Both the position numbers and the translations under genes were made by a program. A DNA stretch of 55,869 nt, counting the filler, from Platydemus manokwari (Eukaryota): assembly GCA_037951405.1 (NCBI GenBank). It is 5 parts of 5 records of this genome, joined end to end, with 100 filler letters (N's around TTAATTAATTAA, not from the genome) between each part and the next. Parts side by side here need not be neighbours in the genome. Positions count along the whole stretch, not along the records: positions 8,853 to 23,498 come from JBBMOY011426977.1; 4 more parts are not named here. One strand, 5' to 3'. Numbering within the stretch: the stretch's first letter is position 1; every line of letters starts with the position of its first letter. Of the stretch, positions 13,369 through 14,831 are shown in pieces. The notes under the pieces were generated by a model that searched no databases, had not been told where the DNA came from, and worked only from the letters and a program-made list of their open reading frames with translations.

Positions 13369-13721
13369 GGAATACACAAAACAACATTTGCTTTAGCCTA
13401 CTTCGACAAACCAGTACTAATAACATCCACATAAAATTTTAGACGATTTTCAGATGATCCAAATATCACGGACGCGCAATATTAGACGATGTATGTTTCA
13501 ATAACATAGCTCCAGTAAAATTAAATCATTTTTTGACAAAAAATACCAAGCAACAATTAACATCAAAAGGGGAACAACTTATAAACCTTTATAAACCACT
13601 AATAATATACATTAACGACTTCGACAGAATATTACCAAAAATGTCAGTCGAAGAACAAGCAGCAATTGATAGACAAATAACAATTCACTATTTTAATAAA
13701 CACTTATTTAATAAAAAATAA
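13369..13721 (+). pseudogene. CRESS-DNA-virus Rep-like SF3 helicase remnant, copy A (endogenous viral element)
   Basis: Hand translation across a stop and frameshifts: GIHKTTFALAYFDKPVLITST* (degenerate Walker A), ILDDVCF (Walker B), TINIKRG (B'), LIIYIND (motif C), LPKMSVEEQAAIDRQITIHYFNKHLF (Arg-finger region). Collinear with copy B. Confidence 0.7.
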
Positions 13722-14133
13722 GGTATTTTATTAATAATTACAATAAAAATAAAACAAATTAGGGTACTTCGCGAAAGGAACATTGAAACTCCTATCCTAC
13801 CAGAATCCCTCAGGTTAGTCCGATATGCAATAAGCACCGAATTACAAGAATTCGCGAAGATATATTTCAAATTAGGTGTATCAAACATAAATTTCAATAT
13901 ACTGTACGCGATAAATTAAACTGTGTTCATTGTAATTTATTATGGCATGGCATACGTACTTATGATAAACTGTGCTTTGAAAATATCTGTCTAAAATGTA
14001 GTGTGTCCTATGTTGTCCCTGTTATTATGACAAAATGCATGTTATGGCATTAAACCGAGGTTCCCGCAAAAAATATGCTCAACCTAACGAGTATCTGAAC
14101 ACCTACCGTTCACCCTAGAGCGTACAAGTCAAA

Positions 14134-14831
14134 ATTTTGATCGTAATCACCACATGGGGCTACCATAACGTCCAATGATACGAAGTTAAACAAGGAAAAT
14201 TTCGATACTATGTATTTCATGTACGGCATCATGACTTTGAGGATATGAGACAAATTTATAGATCTCTTTAAAAAAGCACTCAATATTTTTATGGACAAGT
14301 GGAATTGTCAGACAAGGGATTCGAGCATGTCCAATGCTTTGGAGTCATGAAATATGCAATGGAGAACCGTCTACAAAATTATTTGATCAATTCTTGTATC
14401 AGATTGCAGATGTTTGGGATGGCAAAACACATTTTCCAAGGTCCCACAGGAATAGGAAAAACTAATGATGCTTTGCATCATCTTAAAATACCTATACTTG
14501 CTAGTTGTACACAAAATATAGCCAAAGTATCAAATCAAAAATTAACAGATTGCGTATTTGATGATTATCGTCTAAGGAGTATGCATGCCACTAAAATTAT
14601 CCAAATGATTGATCTAGAACGACCATAGACCGTTAGTATAAATATGGTCATGCTGAGACACTTGCAATGATGTCTAAGATTATAACTACCAATAACTGGG
14701 AGACTGTGTTACCAAAAATGTCTTTAGATCATAGAGCTGCAATTGTAGTGCATACTTTTAATACAAAATTATTTCAGGATATCGGTCCTCAAAAAGTGGT
14801 AAACCCGTTCTCACGGATCACTTGCTGTTAA
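14134..14831 (+). pseudogene. CRESS-DNA-virus Rep remnant (HUH endonuclease plus SF3 helicase), copy B
   Basis: In frame with ORF 14299: RYYVFHV (RCR motif I-like), YFYGQVELSDKGFEHVQCF (motif II, HLQG-like), FQGPTGIGKT (Walker A), CVFDDY (Walker B). After the stop and frameshift at about 14628-14640: KYG (B'), KIITTNN (motif C), LPKMSLDHRAAIVVHTFNTKLF. Motif III is not visible. Confidence 0.8.

Follow-up and report, generated by a model that had tools for sequence, protein, structure and literature searches.

Two Diverged and Decayed CRESS-Type Rep Genes Side by Side in Platydemus manokwari DNA

Two broken Rep genes of CRESS-DNA virus type, referred to here as copy A and copy B, lie on the same strand of DNA from Platydemus manokwari (GenBank assembly GCA_037951405.1). 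They are located within an N-free stretch (8853-23498) of the window, meaning the whole 55,869-nt stretch of DNA analyzed, which is AT-rich with a GC content of 27%. The locus is, with high confidence, viral in origin and decayed, and it is likely integrated into the genome. Its history is less firmly established; the account favored here, at a probability of about 0.5, is that the two genes come from two related viruses whose DNA was captured as one head-to-tail molecule and integrated.

To our knowledge, a host is known for only a minority of CRESS-DNA viruses, and few things tie such viruses to their hosts as directly as endogenous copies do. The locus points to a past infection of the germ line of this host by relatives of a large environmental group of Reps, and to a meeting of two distinct members of that lineage in one host. 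Such a locus can help in assigning hosts and in asking how CRESS DNA integrates. Fossils that consist of Rep alone are common among invertebrates, neighboring pairs of Reps have been described before, and no new mechanism is involved here.

Recognition of the Rep Genes

General-purpose searches recognized little at the locus. None of the nine frames or ORFs submitted to Pfam (9/9 searched) reached the curated cut-off of any family, and no parvovirus family was among the results. A PDB search of the decayed frames returned no match, the PHROGs search of frames gave nothing usable (best E 0.008, to an unknown family), and the same was true of a plasmid search and of Rfam run on the whole window.

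Relatives were instead found by way of a motif. A degenerate Walker A pattern taken from the window matched nine loci (on eight contigs) among small viral contigs, while a stricter version of it matched none. The contigs found in this manner encode PF02407 Reps together with capsid genes, and one of them has a PF00729 S-domain capsid and a crucivirus-type genome (L006). Alignment of the viral-contig Reps led to 386 proteins at E<=1e-10 plus 32 viral loci, and a profile was built from the best 120 of the 386. For these 120 relatives (P0001-P0120; loci L002-L038), the one source name encountered is "rep protein [Cressdnaviricota sp.]". They are intact, are accompanied by capsid genes, have a GC content of 0.35-0.49, and in many cases possess nonanucleotide origin hairpins. 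Identity with them is 30-40% over the helicase core. Their profile matches solved Rep structures of circovirus and nanovirus type (7lar at E 7e-17, 2hwt, and 6h8o), and none of its 14 PDB matches is named as parvovirus NS1 or AAV Rep.

When the 120-Rep profile was run on all six frames of the whole window, scores above 4 bits occurred at the 13369-14831 locus only, and the best domain in the reversed-window control was 1.8 bits. The helicase of copy B (14365-14640) scored 42.9 bits (E 1e-12, for a search space of the six frames of the window only), and copy A scored 13.8 bits at 13369-13458 and 6.6 bits at 13479-13721. Since the seed motif had come from the window itself, the test was repeated with the seed left out; copies A and B then scored 8.7 and 9.4 bits, respectively, and the best of 498 control frames reached 3.3. 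An earlier note on this DNA had described a decayed CRESS-type Rep relic and had proposed a Rep/SF3 profile search as its check. The CRESS Rep profile bears the description out for both copies, while generic profiles fail this check.

The two copies differ in how readily they are recognized. HH-suite assigned the main frame of copy B a probability of 96.7% (its tail 2%, E 0.025), and at least 94 of the 120 Reps match this copy at E<=1, with a best E of 3.8e-10. For the copy A frame the HH-suite probability was only 9.7% (E 0.003), so its putative identity as a Rep leans on the profile and on homology to copy B; 19 of the 120 Reps match its Walker A block. The 87-aa frame of copy A had two matches among 1.84 billion proteins, and both were rejected: one (P0145) is a repeat-protein artefact and the other (P0146) a TIG-repeat protein.

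No close intact relative was found among the viral contigs by protein search or among longer proteins. The tail motifs of the two copies had one match in viral contigs and 0 and 50 matches in metagenome searches, and none of these 51 loci fits the Rep profile. A literature search, in which subscription papers were thinly covered, found neither a description of this locus nor a name for this Rep group, and a search by motif gave unrelated matches only, among the 20 of 267 matches listed.

Architecture and Decay of the Two Copies

Every motif quoted in the earlier note, which had reported two same-strand decayed SF3 helicases, was found on the plus strand (Table 1). Both copies cover the same helicase motifs, and on this ground a single split or spliced Rep was rejected.

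Table 1. Coordinates of the Rep-derived locus and adjoining features (positions along the window).
Feature	Position	Strand	Evidence or remark
Rep-derived locus, two copies	13369-14831	+	Motifs and CRESS Rep profile
Multi-copy repeat of the host, directly upstream of copy A	13100-13311 (approximate)	.	Read depth, variants
Copy A: SF3 helicase half of a CRESS Rep, decayed and truncated at the 5' end	13369-13721	+	Profile, HH-suite, motifs
Copy A degenerate Walker A	13369-13383	+	
Copy A KTTFALAYF	13378-13404	+	
Copy A internal stop	13432	+	
Copy A frameshift	near 13460-13475	+	
Copy A Walker B, ILDD	13479-13490	+	
Copy A motif C, IIYIN	13602-13616	+	
Copy A tail LPKMSVEEQAAI	13632-13667	+	
Copy A tail HYFNKHLF	13686-13709	+	
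Copy A terminal stop, amid AATAAA signals	13719-13721	+	
Spacer between copies	13722-14196	.	GC 0.35 (window 0.27)
Cys/His-rich 88-codon stop-to-stop frame in spacer	13787-14053	+	
Copy B endonuclease remnant	14197-14361	+	Profile 6.0 bits; HUH part 5.5 bits
Copy B RCR motif I-like	14206-14223	+	
Copy B endonuclease stop	14269	+	
Copy B motif II-like, HUQ type, HVQC	14326-14337	+	
Approximate junction, in-frame loss of ~100 codons (motif III and oligomerisation region)	14362-14364	+	Profile positions 61-158 missing
Copy B SF3 helicase	14365-14777	+	Profile, HH-suite, tree, motifs
Copy B Walker A, GPTGIGKT	14440-14463	+	
Copy B Walker B, VFDD	14554-14565	+	
Copy B helicase stop	14626	+	
Copy B frameshift	near 14635-14640	+	
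Copy B motif B', KYG	14640-14648	+	
Copy B motif C, IITTN	14679-14693	+	
Copy B tail LPKMSLDHRAAI	14709-14744	+	
Copy B tail HTFNTKLF	14751-14774	+	
GC-rich (0.42) stretch after copy B	14778-15000	.	GC; no homolog found

In CRESS Reps, an HUH endonuclease is joined to an SF3 helicase, as set out in passages of bioRxiv 10.1101/2022.12.15.520654. At this locus an HUH endonuclease fused upstream of the helicase is seen in copy B only, where motifs I and II are retained; no endonuclease part was found for copy A. The HUH motifs I and II that had been noticed earlier in copy B are present and weak, the HUH part scoring 5.5 bits against a best of 3.6 among 498 control frames, and this part lies in the expected frame and order relative to the helicase.

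Two features had been overlooked in the earlier note, namely the in-frame loss of about 100 codons from copy B and the lack of an endonuclease in copy A. The loss in copy B is evident from the distance between motif II and Walker A, which is 43 aa here versus 118-165 aa in 115 of the 120 relatives. Consistent with it, a middle-domain profile covering motif III and the oligomerisation region had no positive-scoring match in 11001-17000. Motif III, the catalytic YxxK, is present in 115/120 relatives. The arginine finger, found in 113/120, has been lost from copy B in a 4-codon gap, while the tail of copy A keeps a remnant of it. The last frame of copy B continues to 14831.

Each helicase carries one stop and one frameshift, at different places in the two copies, and copy B has the extra stop in its endonuclease. 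Since the catalytic tyrosine motif is missing from both copies, the element appears inert today and presumably could not nick or replicate DNA. A live virus could not carry these stops and frameshifts and be missing motif III. A CRESS virus or provirus still competent to replicate was also rejected as a candidate, since neither motif III nor an origin stem-loop nor a capsid gene was found.

Divergence of Copies A and B

Homology of the two copies, marked by the distinctive tail that had been pointed out earlier, exceeds chance: the A-B protein score is 73, compared with a maximum of 55 in 5000 shuffles. At the DNA level the score is 66 over ~370 nt (maximum of 49 in 500 shuffles), with an identity of about 50%. 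The tail score of 73 between the copies exceeds that of either copy against any of the 120 relatives (at most 53 and 42), and the LPKMS tail occurs in none of them (0/120). Elsewhere the affinity is less specific. For the Walker A and Walker B blocks, the copies score no better with each other than with typical relatives, and over the whole helicase their mutual score of 106 is below that of each copy with its best relative (109 and 134). A and B came together in a 47-row tree that included 45 of the 120 relatives, with an SH-aLRT of 64, a long-branch warning, and branch lengths of 7.75 and 5.68. The copies are likely members of one lineage. A sister relationship is suggested by the tail only, and local gene conversion of the tail may account for the likeness instead.

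The manner of divergence is informative. Four gap-free blocks with a total of 85 codons show identities of 53, 61, and 35% at the first, second, and third codon positions, respectively, with 29% expected at position 3 from composition. Positions 1+2 differ from position 3 at a Fisher p of 0.0014, and dN/dS is ~0.52 (bootstrap interval of pS-pN 0.02-0.33); a protein-guided alignment can inflate such a bias. When random codon strings were left to decay neutrally in a simulation until 48-53% identity, 11-12 stops arose in 2 x 112 codons, whereas two are seen. Two or fewer stops arose in <=0.07% of 1500 runs (P<=0.0007), in a simulation that ignores indels. Decay of ~0.05 substitutions per site since insertion would fit the two stops, and values of 0.02-0.2 are also compatible with them. 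In addition, third positions are A/C-rich in copy A and T/G-richer in copy B (p 2e-6). As far as sequence comparison can tell, the codon-position identities, the presence of only two stops at 50% identity, and the third-position difference show that most of the divergence arose while both copies were working genes. The third-position difference further suggests that the copies came from two genomes.

These data bear directly on the idea that a single virus integrated and that its dead copy was then tandemly duplicated in the host and decayed neutrally for a long time. The tandem, same-strand layout would suit such a history, as would the very long branches of both copies and a 14-nt identical stretch inside the shared tail, and tandemly repeated CRESS elements are known in Giardia (passages of PMC7493932). 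Under neutral decay, on the other hand, identity should not differ between codon positions and the 11-12 stops of the simulation should be present, which is not what is seen; moreover, the stops and frameshifts do not coincide and the flanks are not duplicated. Duplication within the host is improbable on this evidence. The statement in the earlier note that the copies are too different for a recent duplication agrees with both the codon-position pattern and the DNA identity.

Spacer, Flanks, Capsid, and Origin

The DNA between the copies is richer in GC than the window and is probably viral. It includes a Cys/His-rich frame, possibly a decayed viral accessory gene, for which Pfam, PHROGs, and Atlas provided no recognized homolog; in Pfam only TackOD1 appeared, below its cut-off (18 bits versus 32). 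An apparent likeness of this frame to one upstream was dismissed (score 48, within the shuffle maximum of 51). The spacer has no homology to the DNA after copy B or before copy A, which leaves the boundaries of any unit invisible, and a head-to-tail repeat of the flanking DNA was looked for and is absent. The GC-rich stretch that follows copy B may be where the viral DNA ends and AT-rich host sequence (GC 0.235 at 15001-15600) takes over.

Neither a capsid gene nor an origin stem-loop had been recognized earlier, and the ORF, nonamer, and hairpin searches reported here likewise found none. A comparison of 242 non-Rep ORFs from 37 CRESS loci with 11001-17000 gave four matches, none of them evidence of a capsid: three are antisense shadows of Rep and one is a weak match inside copy A. 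In the spacer and flanks there was no capsid match at E<=0.1, a search that a very divergent capsid could escape. Between 12000 and 16500, four nonamer-like matches were found, the best hairpin being -2.0 kcal/mol, whereas relatives reach -16 in the same scan. No strong inverted repeat was found at the locus.

Such an arrangement could also be read as one integration of a capsid-less or multi-gene replicon that possessed a pair of diverged Rep paralogs along with a small Cys-rich gene. The shared strand and lineage-specific tail would be expected of it, as would the GC-richer spacer with its 88-codon frame and the missing trace of a capsid. Yet genes on the same strand of one replicon should share a mutational bias, and here third-position composition differs strongly. 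Known genomes offer little precedent: across the 37 CRESS loci (in which one contig is counted three times), the sole complete doubled Rep belongs to two whole Rep+Cap units, and the other four doubled Reps look like the ends of circular contigs. The "two Reps" described in passages of PMC12738826 are ORFs of 112 and 164 aa, each shorter than one Rep. PEVE, which the earlier note brought up as an element with two helicase sequences, is reported to be parvovirus-like; relatives of this locus match circovirus- and nanovirus-type Rep structures, and the comparison is not supported. We regard a two-Rep replicon as doubtful. The more specific proposal of a two-Rep rolling-circle replicon with the LPKMS tail, belonging to an undescribed animal-infecting branch of the environmental CRESS group (crucivirus-type members included), is equally hard to credit. 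Of the two origins that the earlier note had offered, a two-helicase replicon or two integrations, the third-position data favor two viral genomes and disfavor one replicon.

Integration and Assembly Support

In public run X1, a single contig spans 13312-15499 with zero differences at a depth of 12.4. It covers both copies and reaches 720 nt past the homology of copy B, continuing into the AT-rich right flank. Seven other long unique contigs of this run have depths of 5.6-13.8, which places the Rep contig at about host single-copy depth. Since one contig at that depth spans both copies and enters the flank, an integrated fossil is the most likely state of the element, rather than an episome, and the stops and frameshifts in both copies support an old insertion. 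Depth over copy B was 14.7-19.2 at 80% likeness, near single copy, while a summed depth of 62.7 in the bin 13252-13739 makes further copies of A possible.

The left side of the locus is more complex. Directly upstream of copy A, a depth of 100.7 in the bin 12764-13251 and variant letters at 13143-13144 in six contigs reveal a multi-copy repeat of the host, and unique contigs break beside it at 13197-13311. The left junction is bridged by 57 nt only and the right by one X1 contig. The repeat may mark the point at which copy A was truncated. A further X1 contig (depth 15) has a backward joint from 15532 to 13926 with 28 unmatched letters at 80% likeness, and is probably an AT-rich artefact.

Contaminating viral DNA or a misassembly could in principle produce a segment of this kind. 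The assembly is a draft, most of the stretch is present in one run only (X1, possibly the source of the assembly itself, in which case its support is not independent), and the left junction sits beside a repeat. Against this, the damage and the loss of motif III are unlike a live virus, and the X1 contig crosses both copies and their right flank without differences at host depth. Run X2, from another study and under another organism code (9.6 million letters), includes a 170-nt contig identical to 14474-14643 in copy B, weak support at a depth of 3.4. No RNA run was among the listed matches to the stretch, which is uninformative as to expression. An artefact is highly improbable.

Origin of the Pair

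Two Reps that lie 1 kb apart on the same strand, that diverged under selection, and that have decayed to a similar extent are most simply explained by joint capture. A germ-line nucleus would have been co-infected by two viruses of one lineage, whose replicating DNAs could have been joined by recombination; the joined molecule would have entered the chromosome through strand transfer by Rep or through repair of a break by the host. Deletions would then have stripped the endonuclease from copy A and the middle region from copy B, and would have taken the origin and whatever capsid gene there was, before point decay set in. The similar decay of both helicases fits a similar age. An analogy is provided by a 4180-nt viral contig (L003, the same as L004 and L011) that carries two head-to-tail Rep+Cap units; its Reps are identical at 262/296 residues, and it is either a heterodimer of two related CRESS genomes or a chimera of them created in assembly.

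The joining step in this scheme is hypothetical, and sequential insertion would leave the same picture. In that case a related virus would have inserted beside the first fossil, giving two separate integrations at one site, guided by the origin of the first copy (through Rep nicking), by homology, or by a repeat-rich hotspot. The selective divergence and the difference in composition fit this history as well, the surroundings are repeat-rich, CRESS EVEs of an isopod have been read as multiple independent insertions (passages of PMC4231630), and Rep-mediated integration in the nucleus has been proposed (parts of PMC7493932). What counts against it is that two untargeted insertions less than 1 kb apart on the same strand would be improbable, that both copies have decayed to about the same degree, as if of similar age, and that no origin remnant is present to indicate targeting. 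Sequential insertion is rather unlikely when these points are weighed, and joint capture is retained as the preferred account.

Other Features of the Window

Several features elsewhere in the window were observed in passing. Two long Thr/Asn/Ser-rich, mucin-like frames with tandem repeats occur on the minus strand at 34851-37673 and 43191-45104; they have similar hydrophobic C-terminal ends (119 nt, 71% identical) and are probable paralogous membrane mucins. A single-exon 7-TM receptor gene is located at 2167-3114 (-), with a Pfam Srg score of 32.2 bits and no homolog at E<=1e-5 in a word-seeded protein search. At 28698-31913 (+), a gene of several exons combines a long helical stretch with a degenerate protein-kinase C-lobe (Pkinase scored 24.9 bits, short of its cut-off). 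Transposon remnants include an integrase zinc-binding domain (PF17921) at 5889-6356 (+) and a frame at 27042-27497 (-) that has no Pfam match and that we take to resemble hAT/Buster transposases. The segments at 8753-8852, 23499-23598, 33976-34075, and 45506-45605 each consist of two 44-N runs around a 12-nt palindromic spacer and are not biology.

Comparison with Known Systems

The locus shares with the environmental Cressdnaviricota Rep group the order of Walker A, Walker B, B', motif C, and tail, as well as an HUQ-type motif II. Members of that group differ in being intact, in having capsid genes, and in their lack of the LPKMS tail.

Two other kinds of element invite comparison. Replitrons, according to passages of bioRxiv 10.1101/2022.12.15.520654, possess an HUQ-type HUH endonuclease related to CRESS Reps and reside in eukaryotic genomes. 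They are multi-copy and have no helicase, whereas here an SF3 helicase is fused to the HUQ remnant and copy B is at single-copy depth; both a Replitron and a Helitron (Y2 Rep with SF1 helicase) were rejected for the fused SF3 helicase and near single-copy state. PEVE and PIVE share with the locus an SF3-type helicase of small-DNA-virus origin in an invertebrate. In passages of PMC3198968 they cluster with parvoviruses, and PEVE is described as extrachromosomal and not found integrated; that description sets it apart from the present locus, which matches CRESS Reps and appears integrated. In passages of PMC12738826, PMC7551938, and bioRxiv 10.1101/551184, neither a true two-Rep genome nor any detail of PEVE was found.

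Endogenous circovirus- and nanovirus-like Rep elements are similar in kind, being decayed, Rep-only fragments in non-coding host DNA (passages of PMC3198968 and PMC4231630). Rep-only fossils are the rule among them, given the 302 Rep-like versus 3 capsid-like endogenous matches in 35 species reported in parts of PMC3198968 (Liu et al. 2011). Passages of PMC4231630 describe 20 circovirus-like EVEs in an isopod, and parts of PMC10269781 describe CRESS-derived EVEs in flatworms. The present locus differs in having two copies of ~50% DNA identity side by side, and in that its nearest relatives are unclassified environmental Reps and not Circoviridae proper.

A precedent for the pairing itself comes from the tapeworm Hymenolepis microstoma, in which a scaffold carries a cyclovirus-like element with two adjacent Rep coding sequences (passages of PMC6186406; Rosario et al. 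2018). In both cases two Reps adjoin in an invertebrate scaffold. The tapeworm element, as described in those passages, has one Rep near full length and a partial capsid, and falls in Cyclovirus. At the P. manokwari locus, in contrast, no capsid gene was found, both Reps are dead, and the two copies appear to have diverged under selection.
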